From positions 270,001 through 302,000 of the forward strand of contig NZ_BCZP01000006.1 in NCBI RefSeq assembly GCF_001598795.1: 32,000 bases of DNA, read 5' to 3'. This DNA is from Delftia acidovorans NBRC 14950 (lineage in GTDB: Bacteria > Pseudomonadota > Gammaproteobacteria > Burkholderiales > Burkholderiaceae_C). This document shows positions 4,672 through 32,000 of this stretch, in pieces (within the stretch, counting starts at the first letter, position 1; each line of letters starts with the position of its first letter). The position numbers and the translations under genes are program-made. The notes under the pieces are model-generated. The model was not told the DNA's origin, did no database searches, and saw only the letters and a program-made list of their open reading frames with translations.

Positions 4672-6267
4672 TCAGTTCTTGGAGCCTTGCGCGCCGGGGG
4701 TGTATTCCTCGAAAGCGCGGATGGGGTTGAAGCGGATCCAGGCGCCCACGGGAATCTGGCCGGCCAGATCCAGGTGGTGCGGCGCCACGCAGCCGATGAC
4801 GGGATAGCCGCCCGTCAGCGGATGGTCGGCCAGGAACAGCACGGGCTGGCCGCTGGGGGGCACCTGGATGGCGCCCAGCGGCGTGCCTTCGCTGGGCAGT
4901 TCGCCGGCCACGGCGCGCGCCAGGGGCTGCTCGCCCGCCACGCGCAGGCCCACGCGGTTCGATTGCGGCGTGACCTGCCAGCGCTGCGCTGCCAGCAGGG
5001 CCACGGCCTCGGGCATGAACCAGTCGGTACGCGGGCCCAGCTCCACGTCCAGCACCACGTCCTGCCCGGTGGTGGGCAGGGACTCGGGCGGCAGCTCGGG
5101 TGCGGCCACGGCCTTGCGGTCCGCAGGCCGAACGGGCAGGACCTGGCCCACGGCCAGGGCGGCTGGGCCGACATTCGCCAGGGTGTCGGTGCAGGCGCTG
5201 CCCAGCACGGGCGTGACGGCAAAGCCGCCGCGCACGGCCACATAGCAGCGCGCACCGGCCACGGGCTGGCCCACGGTCAACTGGTCGCCATCGGCCAGGG
5301 CCACGGCCTGGTAGCGCGGCACGCTCCAACGCTGGCCGGACCCGGTGGTCACGGTCAGGGGCGCATCGGCACCCGTGATGGCGACCACCGTCTCGCCCTG
5401 GCTTTGCAGCGACAGGCCACCGCCCACGGTCTCCAGCACGGCCAGGTCGCTGGCATTGCCGACCAGGCGGTTGGCAGCCTTGAAGGCTGCCTGGTCCATG
5501 GCGCCCGAGGCCGAGACGCCCTGCCCGGCCTGGCCCAGGCGGCCCCGGTCCTGGAACAGCGTCATCAGGCCCGTGGCCTTGACGCGCAGCGCGTTGCCTT
5601 CATGCGGCGCGGCCTGCGCCACGGCGGGCGCGGGCGCCTCATCCACCTGGGCCATGCCGGCCGCATCGACAAAGCGCACGCGGTAGCCGGGCTGCAGCAG
5701 CGCGGGCAGCTCGCGCGCCAGGTCCCACATGCGGGCCGAGGTGCGGCCTATCAGTTGCCAGCCGCCCGGGCTGGCCTGGGGATAGACGGCGCTGAACGTG
5801 CCGCCCAGCGCCACCGAGCCGGCCGGCACGCGCGTGCGCGGCGTGGTGCGGCGCGGCACGTTGAAGATCGGATCGCCCCCGCTGAGGTAGGCAAAGCCGG
5901 GCGCGAAGCCCGTGAAGGCCACGGCGTACTCGCTGCCCGTGTGGCGGCGCACGACTTCCTCGGGCGTGATGCCCAGCAGCTGCGCCACGTCGGCCAGGTC
6001 CTCGCCGTCGTAGTGCACGGGAATCTCGACCAGCACATTGCTGCGCTCCGCACGCTGGCCCAGGTCGCGCGCGGCAATGCGGCGCACCAGCTCGGCCACG
6101 CCCAGCCTGGCGGGAGCGAACTGCACGAGCACGGTGCGCGCGGCCGGCACCAGCTCCTGCACGCCATCGATGGGCTCGCGCTGCAGCGAGCCCAGCAGGG
6201 CCAGGGTTTCATCGAGATCGGCCAGCTCCACCATCAGGGCCTGCCGGTTGACGGGTAGAAAACGCAT
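4672..6267 (-). CDS. Fused PxpB-PxpC (KipI-KipA / allophanate hydrolase subunit 1+2 family; 5-oxoprolinase/urea-amidolyase family)
   Basis: The N-terminal ~205 aa is KipI-like (FAPGFAYL, GGWQLIGRT). A short Ala/Pro linker follows. The C-terminal ~300 aa is KipA-like (FQDRGR..GQ..GVSASGAMD, PLTGGYPVIG). Confidence 0.85.
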   Translation of the reverse strand: MRFLPVNRQALMVELADLDETLALLGSLQREPIDGVQELVPAARTVLVQFAPARLGVAELVRRIAARDLGQRAERSNVLVEIPVHYDGEDLADVAQLLGITPEEVVRRHTGSEYAVAFTGFAPGFAYLSGGDPIFNVPRRTTPRTRVPAGSVALGGTFSAVYPQASPGGWQLIGRTSARMWDLARELPALLQPGYRVRFVDAAGMAQVDEAPAPAVAQAAPHEGNALRVKATGLMTLFQDRGRLGQAGQGVSASGAMDQAAFKAANRLVGNASDLAVLETVGGGLSLQSQGETVVAITGADAPLTVTTGSGQRWSVPRYQAVALADGDQLTVGQPVAGARCYVAVRGGFAVTPVLGSACTDTLANVGPAALAVGQVLPVRPADRKAVAAPELPPESLPTTGQDVVLDVELGPRTDWFMPEAVALLAAQRWQVTPQSNRVGLRVAGEQPLARAVAGELPSEGTPLGAIQVPPSGQPVLFLADHPLTGGYPVIGCVAPHHLDLAGQIPVGAWIRFNPIRAFEEYTPGAQGSKN

Positions 6268-14561: not shown

Positions 14562-14907
14562 GGCCGGAACCCTGGCCTTCTGCCGCCTTCACCGAGCCGC
14601 CCAGGCGCTGCACTTCGGCCAGGTACTCGGGGCCGCTGCGCATGCGCTGGTACTGGGCCAGGCGCTGCTGGTAGTCGGCATCCCAGTGGTTCACGTCGGA
14701 CTCGCGGTAGACGTTGAGGCCGGCGCGGTTCCACAGGGCCAGGTCGGCCTGCACTTCGGCGCGCGACAGCGCGGGGCCGGAGGCGACGGGCTCGGCGCCG
14801 AACCAGGTTTCTGCAGATACCGTGGCGGCCGGTGCAGCCGAGGCCATGCCCGACCACAAGGCGGAGGAAAGGGAAACGATGGCGAAGAGGGTCTTTGCGT
14901 GCTTCAT
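14548..14907 (-). CDS. Small secreted protein, DUF4148-like
   Basis: Signal peptide MKHAKTLFAIVSLSSALWSGMASA. The SRAEVQADLALWNRAGL motif resembles DUF4148. AAGGA lies 7 nt upstream of the ATG. Confidence 0.65.
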   Translation of the reverse strand: MKHAKTLFAIVSLSSALWSGMASAAPAATVSAETWFGAEPVASGPALSRAEVQADLALWNRAGLNVYRESDVNHWDADYQQRLAQYQRMRSGPEYLAEVQRLGGSVKAAEGQGSGRVPG

Positions 14908-15030
14908 GGCGAATCCTTTGTCAAATCCTGCAGCGCGTGATTGCGTTCTGCATGGCTGCAGTCTCGTCTTCGCCCGCCTGCACGTCAGTGCCTAAACGCA
15001 CAGCTTTGCGCAAACTCTCCGGTTCCCGCG

Positions 15031-15081
15031 CTCACTGTCCACGCTCACTGTCCACGCTCACCATCCACGCTCACGGCCACT
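15031..15081. repeat. 13-nt tandem repeat, about 4 copies
   Basis: ctcactgtccacg, ctcactgtccacg, ctcaccatccacg, ctcacggccac(t). The last unit contains the cyclase stop codon (15071-15073). Confidence 0.8.
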
Positions 15082-16723
15082 GCAGGCCGGGTCGCGCCAC
15101 ATGCAGGGCCTGCAAGGGCTCGGAGCGCCCGCGCACCTGCACCTGCCGGACTTCGCCCAGGCCATCGGCCACGCCCGCGCGGCGCGCCACCTCCAGCGAC
15201 AGCACCAGCCGGGCCTGGGCGCTCTTGGTGTATTCCTGCAGGCGGCTGGCCGTGTTGACCACCTCGCCCACGGCCGTGAAGGTGGTGGTGTGCTCGAAGC
15301 CCACGCGCCCCACGGCGGCGCGCCCCGCATGCAGGCCCATGCCGAAATCCACCGGCTGGCCGAACTGCGCCTCAAAGGTGTGGCTCCATTCCTGCATGCG
15401 CCGGTCGATGAGGGCGCTGGCCTGCACGGCCTGGCAGCAGGCCGTGTCCAGGTCGGTGTCCAGGCCGAAGATGGCCATCACGCTGTCGCCGATGAACTGG
15501 TTGGCCATGCCGCCGCTGTCGTGCACGGCCTGGCCCACGCGCTCGAAATACTGGTCCAGCACCCAGGACAGGTCCACGGGCCATTGCCGCTCGGCCAGGC
15601 CCGACCAGCGGCGCAGGTCCACGAACAGGATGGCCACCGCGCGCACTTCGCGGACCTCGCGCTGCTCGTCACCTCGCCCGGCCTGGGCGGCTGCCGGCGA
15701 GCGGAACAGCGGCGCCACCTGCACATCGCCCGTGGGCCGCAGCTGGCAGGCCAGCCGCACGTCCTGCGGCGCGCCCACGCGCTCCAGCGTGAGGCGCTCG
15801 TCCCGCCCCGGCGCAGGCAGGTGGGCCGCCGGGCCGGACACGCGCACCCGGCAGGTGGAGCAACGCGCCCTGCCGCCGCACAGCGACAAATGGGCAATGC
15901 CATGCTCGCGGCTGGCTTCGAGCACGCTCATGCCCTGGGCCACCTGCACGGTGCGGCCCGGATAGTGCAGCAGCACCTGGCGGGCGCCGCGCAGGCGCAT
16001 GCGCCGCCACAGCCAGGGGCCGGCCAGCAGCGCGGCCAGGCAGGCCAGCCAGCCCTGGCGCAGCCCGGCCGTCAGCGCGCGCAGCCACTGCGATGCCTCG
16101 GGCGAGGGGCCGGCCGGCACTGGCAGGCCGGCCGCCGCGATCTCGCGCGCCATGGAGACGATGCCCAGCGCCGCCAGCACGGGCAGCAGCACGGCGGCCG
16201 TGAGCAGCAGCGGCTGCCAGCGCCCCCACCAGCCGCGCGCACGCAGGGCCATGTGCAGGCCCATGCAGCCATGGGTCCAGGCGGCCGTCATCAGCAGCAG
16301 CTGGATGGACATGCTGGACGGATTCCAGGAAGAACGCACGATGCGCGCATACGAGGGGTCCACGCCCCAGGCCTCCTGCGCCAGCCGCGTGGCCGGCACG
16401 TGCAGGGCCAGCAGCAGCGGCAGGCCCAGTCCCAGCAGCAGCCGCACGGCCTCCAGCGCCGGCATGCGCAGGCTGCGCCGCCGCGCGAGCGCCTGCAGCG
16501 CCAGCCCCATGTGCACGGCCAGCGCGCCGTAGAGCAGCAGGCTGCCGGGCAGGGATCGCCACACGCCGTGGACCAGCTCGCGCACGGCCTCGGCCGTGCC
16601 CAGCGAGACCAGGCCCAGGGCGTGATTGAACAGGTGCAGCGCCGCATAGGTCCACAGCACCAGGCCGGTGGACCAGTGGAGGCTGCGCAGGGACGGCAGA
16701 GCCGGATGAGGGACACGGGCCAT
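15071..16723 (-). CDS. Membrane-anchored [2Fe-2S] ferredoxin-domain class III adenylate/guanylate cyclase
   Basis: The start is set at MARVPHP (ATG 16723). About six His-rich TM helices come first. A ferredoxin-like domain follows (SLCGGRARCSTC...LACQ). The cyclase domain has ILFVDLRR, FIGDSVMAIFG and VGEVVNTASRLQ. The upstream 289 aa of the tracker's 839-aa ORF overlaps the crp gene and is rejected. Confidence 0.85.
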   Translation of the reverse strand: MARVPHPALPSLRSLHWSTGLVLWTYAALHLFNHALGLVSLGTAEAVRELVHGVWRSLPGSLLLYGALAVHMGLALQALARRRSLRMPALEAVRLLLGLGLPLLLALHVPATRLAQEAWGVDPSYARIVRSSWNPSSMSIQLLLMTAAWTHGCMGLHMALRARGWWGRWQPLLLTAAVLLPVLAALGIVSMAREIAAAGLPVPAGPSPEASQWLRALTAGLRQGWLACLAALLAGPWLWRRMRLRGARQVLLHYPGRTVQVAQGMSVLEASREHGIAHLSLCGGRARCSTCRVRVSGPAAHLPAPGRDERLTLERVGAPQDVRLACQLRPTGDVQVAPLFRSPAAAQAGRGDEQREVREVRAVAILFVDLRRWSGLAERQWPVDLSWVLDQYFERVGQAVHDSGGMANQFIGDSVMAIFGLDTDLDTACCQAVQASALIDRRMQEWSHTFEAQFGQPVDFGMGLHAGRAAVGRVGFEHTTTFTAVGEVVNTASRLQEYTKSAQARLVLSLEVARRAGVADGLGEVRQVQVRGRSEPLQALHVARPGLQWP

Positions 16724-22694: not shown

Positions 22695-23077
22695 GGACGC
22701 GAGGTCTGGTTTTCAATGCACGCCAGGGCGCGCTGCGGAAAAAATACGGCGCCTGGCGCCGATACATCTGAGGGGCCATCCGGATGCAAATCCAGATTGC
22801 CAGGAGGCATGGGGATGGAGGAAACTCCTGCCGGTGCGGCTTCGGCCTGCGGCGTGTTGCCGCCAGGGCCATTCATCCATGGAGCCGCTGCAAAGCTAAC
22901 AGCTCTCCCACCCGCTCATACGGCATTGCCGCTGTGACTTCATATTCAGGGATTTGTTTCGCATGCCGGCCAATTGCGGCGGCACAGGGAAACAGCTTGC
23001 GTTCTTTCGATGGCATTTCGGCCCGGGAAATGTGGAAGAACGATGGAGATGAACACAGCCCCCGCCGCGACCCCAAA

Positions 23078-23812
23078 ATGGCTTCTATCATTGCCCAGCC
23101 CTTGCCTTTCCAGCCATCGACATCGCTCATCCTCGTTGCCGAGGACGAGCCCGAGATCGCAGACATCCTGTGCGCCTACCTGGCCCGCAGCGACCTGCGC
23201 ACCGTGCATGCCGCCGATGGCCAGCAGGCCCTTGAACTGCACCACCACTTGAAACCCGATCTCGTTCTTCTCGACGTGCAGATGCCACGCCTCGACGGCT
23301 GGCAGGTGCTGTCCGAAATCCGCCGGCGCGGCGACACGCCCGTCATCATGCTCACCGCCCTCAACCAGGACGTGGACAAGCTCATCGGCCTGCGCATTGG
23401 CGCGGACGACTACGTGGGCAAGCCCTTCAACGCGGCCGAGGTCGTGGCGCGCGTGCAGGCCGTGCTGCGCCGCTGCGGCCAGGGCCGGCTCCGCGATACC
23501 AAGCTGCTGCAGGCCGGCCCCTTTCGCGTGGACCTGGACAGCCGCGAGGTCAGCGTGCAGGTGCAGGGCGCCACGCATGTGCCCGAACTCACCGTGACCG
23601 AATTCAACCTGCTGGCCAGCCTGGTGCGTTCGCCCCGGCGCGTGTTCAGCCGCGCCGAGCTGCTGCTGAGCTGCCTGCCCGAAGGCCACACGCTGGAGCG
23701 CACCGTGGACAGCCACATCAGCAAGCTGCGCAAGAAGCTCGAAGGCCTGGGCCTGCAGGGCATGCCCGACAGCGTGCGCAGCGTGGGCTACCGGCTGGGG
23801 ATGGACCCATGA
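23078..23812 (+). CDS. OmpR/PhoB-family response regulator
   Basis: Receiver domain (ILVAEDEP, LVLLDVQMPRLDG, MLTA, GADDYVGKPF) and winged-helix output domain (LTVTEFNLL..VDSHISKLRKKL..VGYRL). The start is chosen at MASII; the ATG at 23030 is also possible. Confidence 0.9.
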   Translation: MASIIAQPLPFQPSTSLILVAEDEPEIADILCAYLARSDLRTVHAADGQQALELHHHLKPDLVLLDVQMPRLDGWQVLSEIRRRGDTPVIMLTALNQDVDKLIGLRIGADDYVGKPFNAAEVVARVQAVLRRCGQGRLRDTKLLQAGPFRVDLDSREVSVQVQGATHVPELTVTEFNLLASLVRSPRRVFSRAELLLSCLPEGHTLERTVDSHISKLRKKLEGLGLQGMPDSVRSVGYRLGMDP

Positions 23813-24882
23813 GCGCAGCGGCCGGGCTGCGCCGGCAGGTGGTGCTGACCATGTCGGCCGTCACGCTGGCCGTGGTGGTGCTGTGCGTGCTGGGCTCGTA
23901 CGCCTTCTATGCGCTGCTGCTGACCTTTCACCCGGCCAGCGTCTCCGACGGCTGGATGCCCTCCAGCGTGGAGCTGGCCTGGGTGCTGCTGACCCTGGTG
24001 GTGGCCATGCTGATTGCCATCTTCGTGGCCACGCGGCTGTCGCGGCGCATCCTGCCCTCGCTGGACTCGGTGGCCATCAGCCTGCGCCAGCTGGCCGAGG
24101 GCGACCTGTCGGCGCGCGCCAGCACGGACGACAGCGCGCTGCACGAGGCCGCGCAGCTGGTGCACGACTTCAACAGCCTGGCCCGGCGCCTGGAAGGCAT
24201 GGCGCAGGAGCGCGCCTTCTGGAGCGCGGCCATCGCCCATGAGCTGCGCACGCCCGTGACCATCCTCAGCGGGCGGCTGCAGGGCCTGTCCGACGGCGTC
24301 TTCCTGCCCAGCAAGGACATGCTGGCCAGCCTGATGACCCAGGTCGAGGGGCTGACCCGCCTGATCGACGACCTGCGCCTGCTGGGCCTGCAGGAAAACG
24401 GCCATCTGCAACTGCAGCTGCGCCAGACCTGCCTGGCCGGCGAGGTGCGCTCGGTGGCCCTGGCCGTGGGACCGGCGCTGGAGCAGGCCGGCCTGCAGCT
24501 GGCGATGGAGCTCGATGACCAGCCCGTGGTCTGCGACCCCGTGCGCATACGCCAGGCCCTGCTGGCCCTGCTGGAAAACGCCATGCAATATGCCCAGCCC
24601 GGCCCCCTGCTGGTGGCCGCGCGCGTGCGCCACGGCCTGTGCACCGTGCGCGTGGAAGACAGCGGCCCCGGCGTGGCGGCGGACCTTGCGCCGCGCATCT
24701 TCGACGCTTTCCAGCGCGGTGAAGGCGCCCGCAGCCGAAGGAATGCCAGCGTGGGTGCAGGCAACGGCAGCGGACTGGGCCTGGCCGTGGTGCAGGCCAT
24801 TGCCCAGGCCCATGGCGGGCGGGCGCAGTGCCTGCAGGGCGAGCGTGGCGGCGCGCTGTTCGAGCTGAGCTGGCCGGCCTGA
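23809..24882 (+). CDS. Sensor histidine kinase (2 TM, ~17-aa external loop, HAMP, HisKA, HATPase)
   Basis: ATGA overlap with the response-regulator stop. H-box AIAHELRTPVT, N-box LLENAMQYA, G1 VEDSGPGV and G2 GSGLGLAVV. Confidence 0.9.
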   Translation: MSAAAGLRRQVVLTMSAVTLAVVVLCVLGSYAFYALLLTFHPASVSDGWMPSSVELAWVLLTLVVAMLIAIFVATRLSRRILPSLDSVAISLRQLAEGDLSARASTDDSALHEAAQLVHDFNSLARRLEGMAQERAFWSAAIAHELRTPVTILSGRLQGLSDGVFLPSKDMLASLMTQVEGLTRLIDDLRLLGLQENGHLQLQLRQTCLAGEVRSVALAVGPALEQAGLQLAMELDDQPVVCDPVRIRQALLALLENAMQYAQPGPLLVAARVRHGLCTVRVEDSGPGVAADLAPRIFDAFQRGEGARSRRNASVGAGNGSGLGLAVVQAIAQAHGGRAQCLQGERGGALFELSWPA

Positions 24883-24900
24883 CCTCTTCAGAGCCGCAGA

Positions 24901-25569
24901 TCAGCCTGCGAAATCATCGGCCCGCACATGGCGTGCGTCCCAGGCGGCGGCCAGCGCAGCGGCCCGGCCCAGGCGCACGCGGCCTGATTCAAAGTCCACG
25001 ATGCCTGCCTCCTGGGCCGCCGCAGGCCGCGCGGGCCGCTCGCGCGTTCGGCCGTCGGTGAGCACCCACAGCCAGCCCTGGCAGGAGGCATCTGCGCCGC
25101 AATGGCGCTGCAGCAACTGGCCCGCCTGCTCCACGGCCGCCTGCAGCGGCGTGCCGCCGCCTCCGCCAATGGGAGCGATCCAGTCGTCATTCCAGGCCGC
25201 TGCCTTGCGCGGCGGCAGGCGCAACTCCACGCGCGTGCCCGCAAAGCAGATCAGCGCCACCTGCTCGCGGCGGCGGTAGGCCTCTTCCATCAGCGACAGC
25301 AGCACGCCCTTGGCCCGCGCCAGTGCGCCACTGCCGGCCATGGAGGCCGAGCAATCGAGCACAAAGCAATGCAGCCGCGTGGCCTGTGGCGGCTCACGGC
25401 GGCGCTGCAGATGTTCGGGTGCCAGCGCCTGGGCGCCGCGTGCGGCCAGCGTGCGCGGCCAGTCCCAGCTGCCGGTGGCCTGCCCGCCTTGCGCCTGGGC
25501 CAGCCGGGGCTGGCCCGCCCCCGCAGCCCTTGCCTGTGGCGCGGGGCCGCGGGGGCTCAGGCTTTTTTT
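24901..25569 (-). CDS. chlD: vWA/MIDAS domain of a ChlD-type medium chelatase subunit. It is encoded in the -1 frame with no plausible start codon of its own, so it is probably expressed as a 598-aa fusion with 25563-26696.
   Basis: The MIDAS motif is complete: DCSAS ... GGGTPL ... LTDGR. The frame is open from 25665, but the first ATG/GTG/TTG is the GTG at 25362, inside beta-strand 1 (LHCFVLDCSASM). Confidence 0.7.
   Translation of the reverse strand, partial: KKSLSPRGPAPQARAAGAGQPRLAQAQGGQATGSWDWPRTLAARGAQALAPEHLQRRREPPQATRLHCFVLDCSASMAGSGALARAKGVLLSLMEEAYRRREQVALICFAGTRVELRLPPRKAAAWNDDWIAPIGGGGGTPLQAAVEQAGQLLQRHCGADASCQGWLWVLTDGRTRERPARPAAAQEAGIVDFESGRVRLGRAAALAAAWDARHVRADDFAG
25517..25556 (-). 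promoter_or_regulatory. Stimulatory stem-loop 6 nt downstream of the heptamer
   Basis: GCCCCCGCGGCCC (25556-25544) pairs with GGGCUGCGGGGGC (25529-25517). That is 13 bp with one G-U pair and a 14-nt loop. Confidence 0.6.
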
Positions 25570-26696
25570 GTGGCGGACACTCCCGCCTTTGCGGCCTCGC
25601 GGGCCAGCAATGAGGGCACGGCGACACGCAGCAGGCCCACGGGCTCGGGCGGCATGGCGCCCCAGTCAGCCTCGGAGGGCGGGCTGTCGCCTGCGCCGTT
25701 GGCCGTGGATTCTGCAGGCGGCCGGCTTTGTGCCGGCGACTGCGAAGGCGGATTCGATGGCGCTTGCTGTGGGGATGGCTGCTGCTGCGGCTGCGGCGCC
25801 CCCGGCTTGCGGCGGTGCACCAGCACCAGCTCGGCCACGGCCTGCACATGGTCGGGCGTGACCTCGGCATCTCCCAGCCAGGCGGCCCAGGCGCGGGCGG
25901 CGCGCAGCAGCACCAGGTCGGCGCGCAGGCCGTCCACCTGGGCGGCAATGCACAGCGCGCCCGCGGCCTGCAGCACATAGTCGGACCAGGGCAGCGCGCC
26001 GGCCGGCTGCAGGCGCTCGCGTGCCGTGCGCAGCTGCGCGGCGAGCGCGGCCTGGGCGTCTGCATGGCGGGCGCGGAAGGCTGCGGGGTCGGCATCGAAC
26101 AGCAGCCGCGCGCGCACGATGGCCTGGCGCTGGGCCGCATCCTCCACATTGGCCAGGCGCACGCACAGGCCCAGGCGGTCCAGCAGCTGCGGGCGCAGCT
26201 GGCCTTCCTCGGGGTTCATGGTGCCCACCAGCACGAAGCGCGCCGCGTGGCGGTGCGAGATGCCGTCGCGCTCGACCACGTTGACGCCGCTGGCGGCGGC
26301 ATCCAGCAGCACATCGACCAGGGCATCGGGCAGCAGGTTGATCTCGTCCACATAGAGCACGCCGCCATGGGCGCGCGCCAGCAGGCCGGGCGCGAATTTG
26401 AGTGCATGGCCGGCCATGGCCTGGCCCAGGTCCAGCGAGCCGGCCAGATGCTCCAGCGAGGCGCCCAGCGGCAGCGTGACGAAGGGCGCGGCATCGATGA
26501 GCTCGGCCAGGGCGCGCGCGGCCGTGGACTTGGCCGTGCCGCGCGGCCCCTCGATCAGCACGCCGCCCAGTTGCGGGTCGATGGCGGCCAGCAGCAGCGC
26601 CTGGCACAGCAGGGGCTGGCCGGCAATGGCGGCAAAGGGAAACAGCGGCGGCAGCGCGGGCTGGGCGCCGCTGCCCAGGTCAGGGGAGGCGGTCAT
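25557..26696 (-). CDS. chlI: ChlI/BchI-type AAA+ chelatase ATPase with C-terminal Pro/Gln-rich linker (zero-frame product, 379 aa; small subunit)
   Basis: Walker A GPRGTAKST, Walker B VLYVDEINLL, then VERDGIS, VGTMNPEEG and LRPQLLDRLGL, followed by the linker KPGAPQPQQQPSPQQAPSNPPSQSP. ATGA overlap with the cobN stop. The frame stops one codon after an A7 run. Confidence 0.85.
   Translation of the reverse strand: MTASPDLGSGAQPALPPLFPFAAIAGQPLLCQALLLAAIDPQLGGVLIEGPRGTAKSTAARALAELIDAAPFVTLPLGASLEHLAGSLDLGQAMAGHALKFAPGLLARAHGGVLYVDEINLLPDALVDVLLDAAASGVNVVERDGISHRHAARFVLVGTMNPEEGQLRPQLLDRLGLCVRLANVEDAAQRQAIVRARLLFDADPAAFRARHADAQAALAAQLRTARERLQPAGALPWSDYVLQAAGALCIAAQVDGLRADLVLLRAARAWAAWLGDAEVTPDHVQAVAELVLVHRRKPGAPQPQQQPSPQQAPSNPPSQSPAQSRPPAESTANGAGDSPPSEADWGAMPPEPVGLLRVAVPSLLAREAAKAGVSATKKA
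25563..25569 (-). promoter_or_regulatory. Candidate -1 frameshift (or transcriptional slippage) heptamer A AAA AAA
   Basis: The zero frame reads ACA AAA AAA GCC TGA, and the -1 frame reads CAC AAA AAA AGC CTG. GGGAG (25584-25580) lies 10 nt upstream. Confidence 0.6.
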
Positions 26697-31596: not shown

Positions 31597-31623
31597 GGAA
31601 GGTTCTCCAGAAAAAAGAGGAAG

Positions 31624-32000
31624 TCAGACGGTGGCGAAAGGCACGGCGCTGCGCAATGAAGGGAGAACCTCCTGCGCAAACAGTTCCATGCCGGCGAGGG
31701 CCTGGGCATCGCTCCACAGGCCGTTGGCGTTGAAGACGCAGCGCAGCTGGCCAATGCCCGTGCGCTCGCGCAATGCGGTGATCTGCGCATGGCACTGCTC
31801 GGGCGTGCCATGGATGAATTGTTCGGCCAGCACGCGCGGCACATCGATGGGCAGCACCTGGTCGGCCGGCACGCCGCGCTTGCCCGCAAAGTACACGCGC
31901 CGCTGGTACAGCTGCGGCCACAGCGTGGCCAGCTGGGCCTGCACGGCGGCCTCATCGGCACCGATGCAGACATAGCGCGCCAGCGATGAACGCGCACGCA
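31624..32000 (-). CDS. C-terminal part of a probable LLM-class (luciferase-like) flavin-dependent oxidoreductase; 5' end outside the window
   Basis: The frame is open to the window edge. The C-terminal ...FIHGTPEQCHAQITALRERTGIGQL..F pattern resembles LLM C-termini. The assignment is tentative. Confidence 0.45.
   Translation of the reverse strand, partial: RARSSLARYVCIGADEAAVQAQLATLWPQLYQRRVYFAGKRGVPADQVLPIDVPRVLAEQFIHGTPEQCHAQITALRERTGIGQLRCVFNANGLWSDAQALAGMELFAQEVLPSLRSAVPFATV

Follow-up and report, generated by a model that had tools for sequence, protein, structure and literature searches.

How can a bacterium obtain the small as well as the medium subunit of its cobalt chelatase from a locus that carries, next to cobN, a single chlD gene split between two overlapping reading frames? 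The question is raised by a 32,000-nucleotide (nt) stretch of Delftia acidovorans NBRC 14950 (NZ_BCZP01000006.1, positions 270,001-302,000), here called the window, whose own positions serve as coordinates throughout. The locus is the cobW-cobN-chlD cluster of a Delftia-type betaproteobacterium, and its chlD gene encodes an AAA+ ATPase in the zero frame and a vWA domain in the -1 frame (Table 1). An original prediction, made from the sequence letters, had read this arrangement as two subunits produced from one gene. This reading is supported by the 47 related loci analyzed below and by a published reporter value obtained with a near-identical cassette, and we consider it very probable that one chlD gene gives a ChlI-like and a ChlD-like subunit by -1 programmed ribosomal frameshifting.

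Table 1. Features of the cobW-cobN-chlD cluster, of the chlD frame overlap and of the convergent genes (window positions)
Feature	Position	Strand	Description
cobW	31596-30547	minus	cobalt metallochaperone GTPase, first gene of the cobW-cobN-chlD run; Pfam cobW and CobW_C
cobN	30517-26693	minus	large catalytic subunit of aerobic cobaltochelatase; Pfam CobN-Mg_chel
chlD, zero-frame open reading frame (ORF)	26696-25557	minus	ATG 26696 to TGA 25559-25557; 379 amino acids (aa), ChlI/BchI-type AAA+ ATPase and Pro/Gln-rich linker
Shine-Dalgarno-like GGGAG	25584-25580	minus	exactly 10 nt upstream of the heptamer; putative upstream stimulator
Slippery heptamer A_AAA_AAA	25569-25563	minus	in phase, ACA_AAA_AAA_GCC_TGA
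Zero-frame stop TGA	25559-25557	minus	one codon (GCC) after the heptamer; GCC and TGA form the 6-nt spacer before the stem
Downstream stem-loop	25556-25517	minus	putative stimulator; 13-bp stem with one G-U pair, 14-nt loop
Second hairpin	25497-25516	minus	8 bp, GGGCCAGC / GCUGGCCC, directly after the main stem, in the minimum-free-energy fold
chlD, -1-frame part	24901-25563	minus	220 aa: linker, W-x-WPRTLAA motif, vWA/integrin-I domain with metal-ion-dependent adhesion site (MIDAS; DCSAS, T, D)
Histidine kinase	23809-24882	plus	convergent with chlD
Response regulator	22784-23812	plus	downstream of chlD, convergent

One chlD gene in two reading frames

The zero-frame protein carries the Walker A (GPRGTAKS) and Walker B (LYVDEIN) motifs, matches the Pfam families AAA_5, Mg_chelatase and AAA_lid_2, and has the C-terminus ...GVSATKKA. 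Its AAA+ part matches in the PDB the structures of BchI (1g8p, E 4e-71) and of cyanobacterial ChlI (8osf, E 1.5e-69; 6l8d), and an alignment of 18 sequences shows no variation in its Walker A and B, sensor and Arg residues; the closest named relatives of this part belong to Delftia sp. WSY_7 (95%) and D. tsuruhatensis (82%). With TIGR02030 the 379-aa product scores 295.8 bits, under the equivalog cut-off of 467, which makes it ChlI-like and not an equivalog of the photosynthetic BchI. Judged from its sequence, it is a complete ChlI-type ATPase and the predicted small subunit, obtained by standard decoding.

The -1 frame stays open between 25665 and its stop at 24903-24901 and encodes ...LHCFVLDCSASM...GGGGTPL...LTDGR, so that the full MIDAS signature (DCSAS, GGGGTPL, LTDGR) lies in this frame. 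Pfam VWA_2 matches the -1-frame part with an E of 2.9e-10, and the integrin-I domain of BchD (PDB 2x31_A) matches residues 440-551 of the fusion (E 9e-10). On the NCBIfam model TIGR02442, "putative cobaltochelatase", the N-terminal part corresponds to positions 87-343 and the C-terminal part to positions 456-640; this collinearity, together with the BchI/ChlI and BchD matches in the PDB, indicates that the two frames encode one ChlD-type protein. TIGR02031 (BchD-ChlD) also matches both halves, each under its full-length cut-off because they were scored separately.

Conceptual translation with a -1 shift yields a 598-aa product, which shares its first 378 residues with the 379-aa product and whose junction joins ...SATKK to SLSPRGPAPQAR. 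It has the architecture of ChlD/BchD, that is, an N-terminal AAA+ part, a Pro-rich linker (PGAPQPQQQPSPQQAPSNPPSQSPAQSRPP) and a C-terminal integrin-I/vWA domain with a MIDAS. This frameshift product is the predicted medium subunit, and the vWA part would be expressible only as its C-terminal part: the earliest ATG, GTG or TTG of the -1 frame is the GTG at 25362, 195 nt past the stop and within the first vWA beta-strand (...LHCF-V-LDCSAS), and only CTG and ATT codons precede it. All of these features of the gene had been anticipated and were reproduced here, namely the AAA+ ORF with intact Walker motifs, Pro/Gln-rich linker and terminal TGA, the complete MIDAS in the -1 frame, the lack of a -1-frame start before 25362, and the 379- and 598-aa products with the ATKK junction.

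The ChlI/ChlD/ChlH (BchI/D/H) and CobS/CobT/CobN enzymes share with the chlD-cobN system the organization in large, medium and small subunits. These three-gene chelatases, however, have a separate gene for the small subunit, and the window has none: a second ChlI-like sequence, CobS or CobT was not found within its 32 kb, as the original prediction had stated for the surroundings of cobN. The Pfam and NCBIfam matches of the chlD products include no CobS or CobT family, the best being ChlI/ChlD-type families and TIGR02442. The AAA+ part is of the ChlI/BchI and not of the CobS type, and its partner is a bona fide CobN. The chlD products are thus predicted to be functional analogues of CobS and CobT, not members of their families.

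The signal at the frame overlap and in related loci

The slippery heptamer lies in phase in the overlap of the two frames, and the stem that follows it after 6 nt pairs GCCCCCGCGGCCC (25556-25544) with GGGCUGCGGGGGC (25529-25517). In the 32 kb of the window, which has a G+C content of 69.8%, the A7 run is the sole A/T homopolymer of at least 7 nt. The 111-nt site region folds at -71.2 kcal/mol (z = -3.25) and none of 200 shuffles folds as well, while a helix of at least 13 bp anchored at the offset of the stem was found in none of 500 dinucleotide shuffles. This site anatomy exceeds chance expectation. The duplex of GGGAG with the 3' end of the 16S rRNA (-7.3 kcal/mol) is among the strongest 4% for positions within its ORF, and the second hairpin of the modelled fold may stack on the main stem. 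The A7 heptamer, the GGGAG and the GC-rich stem had all been called from the letters at these same places, and each was recovered.

We compared the locus with related loci from a scan with one genome per species, which gave 80 loci among the matches listed, no Delftia among them; Delftia loci were obtained by exact-protein look-up. The frame arrangement in the relatives was established by tblastn with the two chlD halves. Among the 80 loci listed, the vWA part lies in the -1 frame in 47 (Comamonadaceae, Burkholderia, Paraburkholderia, Caballeronia, Pseudomonas and Ectothiorhodospira) and in the AAA+ frame in 32, mostly from Actinobacteria but also from Dyadobacter, Methanosarcina, a Thermodesulfobacteriota metagenome-assembled genome (MAG), a gammaproteobacterial MAG and one Acidovorax; the remaining locus, from Cupriavidus basilensis, has no vWA part. 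No stop separates the two parts in 31 of the 32 same-frame loci, the other one (L080) having one. The cobN gene is immediately upstream in 45 of the 47 -1 loci versus 4 of the 32 same-frame loci.

Of the 47 -1 loci, 46 have an A_AAA_AAA or A_AAA_AAG in phase at the overlap, the former in betaproteobacteria and the latter in gammaproteobacteria and one Comamonadaceae MAG, and the zero-frame stop follows exactly one codon (3 nt) after the heptamer in all 47. The single C_CCA_AAA belongs to a Rubrivivax MAG (L071:3975-3987), whose locus is typical in other respects and has this heptamer at the usual distance of one codon from the stop.

The downstream stem was followed by searching for helices anchored on the heptamer, controlled with dinucleotide shuffles, and by an arms-only alignment. 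These two replaced a MAFFT alignment of the region from -22 to +60 around the heptamer, in which the 3' arms fell out of register because loop lengths differ between clades. Across the 47 -1 loci the longest helix averages 9.9 bp when anchored at offset 6 after the heptamer, a sharp peak above the roughly 4 bp seen elsewhere. The conserved helix begins 5-6 nt after the heptamer, and the anchored helix beats 95% of its own dinucleotide shuffles in 37 of the 47 sequences and 99% in 30. The stem sequence itself varies by clade: GCCCCCGC in Delftia, GCCACCSC in other Comamonadaceae, GCCATCGR in Burkholderia/Paraburkholderia and GCATYCGCC in Pseudomonas. Both-sided, compensatory changes occur in 7 of the first 9 stem pairs and 95.6% of the cells are paired; none of 500 shuffles scores as high, and slid registers pair at 32-48%. 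Since the 3' arms of the arms-only alignment were located by complementarity, these pair counts lean towards structure, and the helix shuffle test serves as the independent control. The stem lies within the poorly conserved linker, so that constraint on the protein does not explain the pairing. Heptamer, phase, adjacent stop, spacing and covarying stem are, in sum, conserved in the -1 loci.

The upstream element behaves differently. Counting the window, 9 of 11 Comamonadaceae sequences have a strong GGGAG-like element, as do Caballeronia and the P. putida group (GAGGTG), and Burkholderia, Paraburkholderia and most Pseudomonas lack one. The dnaX-like signal that the original prediction had described thus extends to the orthologues for the heptamer and the stem, whereas the GGGAG is restricted to certain lineages; it is plausibly an accessory enhancer there and does not define the signal. 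An upstream hairpin overlapping the GGGAG (GGCGGG/UCCGCC in the window) was also considered as part of the signal and rejected, its mean z being 0.06 with 3 of 47 sequences significant.

Some individual loci depart from the common pattern. In Acidovorax sp. SUPP3334 (L002:3850-4120) chlD is an in-frame fusion with a shortened linker, lacking the KKA-stop, the A-run and the stem; the recoding site was apparently lost by deletion, so that only the long product would be possible. Cupriavidus basilensis OR16 (L012:4000-4300) keeps the A7 run and the ...PAKKA-stop end, and its -1 frame reads KKSLSHR...WPRTLAAK and then breaks off; the 3' part of this chlD looks truncated or disrupted, without a vWA domain. 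A Delftia tsuruhatensis-like contig (L084:4113-4180) has the GGGAG, the A7, the GCC_TGA and the stem as in the window, with compensating changes in the stem; just after the stem it has a -1-frame ATG (MPGQPRL), called as the start of a 217-aa vWA ORF, and the window lacks that ATG. Finally, eight Pseudomonas loci (L020, L023, L026, L028, L030, L032, L035 and L058; around 5780-6150) show a weak AAA+-like tblastn match about 1.8 kb downstream of chlD which, with an E of about 1e-7 and 34-40% identity over about 95 aa, is too weak for a chlI.

Probable frameshifting, its precedents and its rivals

Frameshifting in this gene family has been described before. Antonov et al. 2013 (NAR, PMC3711429) described a "magnesium chelatase" cluster (131733585) of 23 genes carrying a -1 frameshift, found in Pseudomonas, Burkholderia, Delftia, Herpetosiphon, Methanocaldococcus and Methanococcus, and tested three of its cassettes between GST and MBP in Escherichia coli. 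Frameshifting efficiency was 63% with 11 As, 40% with 9 As and 10% with 7 As, and cassette 286671156 (their Table S2) gave 10 +/- 6.25% (PMC3711429). We found this cassette identical to window positions 25589-25518 at 69 of 72 nt, including the heptamer, spacer, stop, stem and GGGAG; the three substitutions that separate the two sequences fall upstream of the heptamer, where the cassette reads GTG_GGA_GCG_CCC and the window GCG_GGA_GTG_TCC. By this comparison, the window carries a strain- or species-level variant of an already known element, whose cloning and measurement have been published. The production of the small and medium cobaltochelatase subunits from one chlD gene is attributed to Antonov 2020 (MBE 37:2268) by Kuznetsov et al. 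2022 (PMC9227772), which is exactly the claim for which the original prediction had named that work. The comparative details of the signal given above may overlap with it.

With the frameshifted chlD genes of cobalamin producers, the window shares the adjacent overlapping frames, with the AAA+ part followed by the vWA part in the -1 frame, as well as the in-phase A-rich heptamer within the overlap and the downstream RNA structure. A second likeness is that to dnaX of E. coli, which encodes the tau and gamma subunits of DNA polymerase III: both sites combine an A_AAA_AAR heptamer, decoded by tRNA-Lys, with a Shine-Dalgarno-like element some 10 nt before it and a stem-loop 5-6 nt after it, and both give two subunits of one complex from one gene. 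This likeness, which had been pointed out from the sequence, holds for the layout only, the genes being unrelated, and the outcome is reversed: a ribosome that has shifted on dnaX meets a stop almost immediately and makes the short product, whereas on chlD it makes the long one. Moreover, the dnaX heptamer ends in G and that of the window in A, and, unlike in the dnaX layout, the upstream element is not conserved throughout the chlD family. Transposases of the IS3 family (IS911 OrfA/OrfAB) and the phage tail assembly chaperones G/GT follow the same logic of expression: standard decoding gives a short product, -1 frameshifting at an A-rich heptamer with a downstream structure gives a fusion extended at its C-terminus, and the ratio of the two proteins is thereby fixed. 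Their proteins are unrelated to those of chlD, which are subunits of a metabolic enzyme sharing an AAA+ module.

Taken together, these observations suggest the following course of events. A ribosome translating chlD would reach A_AAA_AAA with two tRNA-Lys in its P and A sites and be held there by the 13-bp G+C-rich stem 6 nt downstream, probably assisted in the Delftia lineage by pairing of the GGGAG, 10 nt upstream, with the anti-Shine-Dalgarno sequence. The majority of ribosomes would read GCC and terminate at the TGA, releasing the 379-aa ChlI-like AAA+ ATPase as the small "motor" subunit. A minority would slip back by one base through tandem tRNA-Lys slippage and continue in the -1 frame, giving the 598-aa AAA+/linker/vWA protein as the medium "adaptor" subunit. 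Both products would then join CobN in inserting cobalt during aerobic cobalamin synthesis, with the subunit ratio set by the efficiency of frameshifting. The anatomy of the site, its conservation, the covariation of the stem and the linkage to cobN are observed in the sequences; the ribosomal nature of the slip, the ratio in the native host and the role of both products as working subunits are inferred.

Several points weigh against this reading. The sole measurement is heterologous, from a GST-MBP reporter in E. coli, and its value is low (10 +/- 6.25%). Efficiency tracks the length of the poly-A run (PMC3711429), which fits transcriptional slippage too. The GGGAG is not conserved across the chlD family, which leaves its contribution unproven, and the absence of a separate chlI, cobS or cobT holds for the 32-kb window only. 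Protein-level evidence from Delftia was not found.

The dependence on A-run length bears on the possibility that RNA polymerase, and not the ribosome, slips, adding one A to the A7 run and so producing an A8 mRNA that encodes the ...TKKSLSPR... fusion with no ribosomal slip. The protein made from such an mRNA would be identical to that of the -1 ribosomal slip, and the reporter assay cannot separate the two processes. However, the orthologues of Pseudomonas, Ectothiorhodospira and one Comamonadaceae have only six As and a G (A_AAA_AAG), a sequence well known as a ribosomal slippery site and not long enough for the polymerase to slip efficiently. The phase of the heptamer is invariant and the run in the window counts seven As, whereas programmed transcriptional realignment typically involves A/T runs of at least nine, kept irrespective of phase; and a covarying stem at the canonical spacing of 5-6 nt has a known role in ribosomal, not in transcriptional, slippage. 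Low-level polymerase slippage may take place at the A7 run, but as the explanation for the split gene we regard it as quite improbable.

It could also be argued that chlD is in fact two genes, the vWA protein being made by internal initiation, or by termination and reinitiation after the TGA, and acting as a free subunit. Gene callers do annotate a separate vWA ORF of 146-217 aa in these genomes, and the D. tsuruhatensis-like relative offers a -1-frame ATG just after the stem. In the window, by contrast, initiation at the GTG at 25362 would fall inside the vWA domain. Among the orthologues the -1-frame start codons are scattered, without positional conservation, and in 7 of 48 sequences, window included, none precedes the W-x-(W/L)P-x-TL motif; the -1-frame peptide upstream of any such start is conserved. 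An independent start for the vWA ORF was rejected on these grounds, and we hold the two-gene explanation to be very improbable. For the reporter set-up of 2013, a separate His-tag test for internal initiation is described (PMC3711429). Homopolymers are, besides, error-prone in sequencing, and in-frame fused ChlD genes occur in other lineages and in one Acidovorax (L002), so that the true gene might be an in-frame A8 fusion or else a decaying, non-functional pseudogene. Yet all 1796 nt of the gene region are 100% identical in GCA_000741825.1 (record KN046795.1) and in two independent Logan run assemblies, and this identity across three independent assemblies makes a one-off miscall of the homopolymer unlikely. 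The same -1 arrangement, heptamer and stop recur in 47 species-level genomes of several families, and the vWA MIDAS and the AAA+ motifs are intact; an error or a pseudogene is extremely improbable.

Programmed ribosomal frameshifting being the reading that we prefer, it is tempting to speculate that the subunit ratio is tuned by lineage through the parts of the signal, which would make it a regulated stoichiometry switch for cobaltochelatase assembly and not a fixed-ratio device. This idea is based on the Shine-Dalgarno-like enhancer being present in some lineages only (Delftia, most other Comamonadaceae and the P. putida group), and we consider it unlikely. The invariant stop one codon past the heptamer, at the foot of the stem, could mean that termination competes with slippage, coupling the ratio to the conditions of translation and termination.

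The main value of these results lies in annotation. Gene calls for chlD in these genomes routinely consist of an "ATP-binding protein" and a truncated vWA ORF; owing to this split, the B12 cobalt chelatase is left without its medium subunit in the annotation and its pathway seems to have a gap. The locus is, in addition, a clean bacterial example of recoding by which a single gene supplies two subunits of an enzyme in a set ratio. This two-subunit point itself dates from the literature of 2013 and 2020; to it the window adds one more Delftia strain, with a compact description of the proteobacterial signal: a universal stop one codon after the heptamer, a covarying stem and a lineage-restricted Shine-Dalgarno-like element.

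The cobW-cobN-chlD cluster and its surroundings

The three genes of the cluster form a single run closed by chlD (26696-24901), the start of which overlaps the stop of cobN (ATGA at 26696-26693). The identity of its first two genes is supported by NCBIfam, CobW scoring 511 bits with TIGR02475 (cut-off 332) and CobN 1553.7 bits with TIGR02257, cobalto_cobN (cut-off 822). An Rfam scan of the whole window returned no family at gathering score, and no cobalamin riboswitch was found in the 400 nt upstream of cobW (31597-32000) or elsewhere in the window; the sole Rfam match in those 400 nt is a chance microRNA match (E 0.98). If the operon is regulated by B12, the regulatory element would be located further upstream or be of another kind.

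The remaining genes of the window have unrelated metabolic and transport functions. Two adjacent ORFs with a high G+C content at third codon positions, 14718-15965 (415 aa) and 15966-16532 (188 aa), lie on the plus strand and are without a Pfam match. On the other side of chlD, the pair of histidine kinase and response regulator genes is followed by a gene for an AcrB-type pump, and the stop codons of chlD (minus strand) and of the histidine-kinase gene (plus strand) are only about 18 nt apart (24882-24901).

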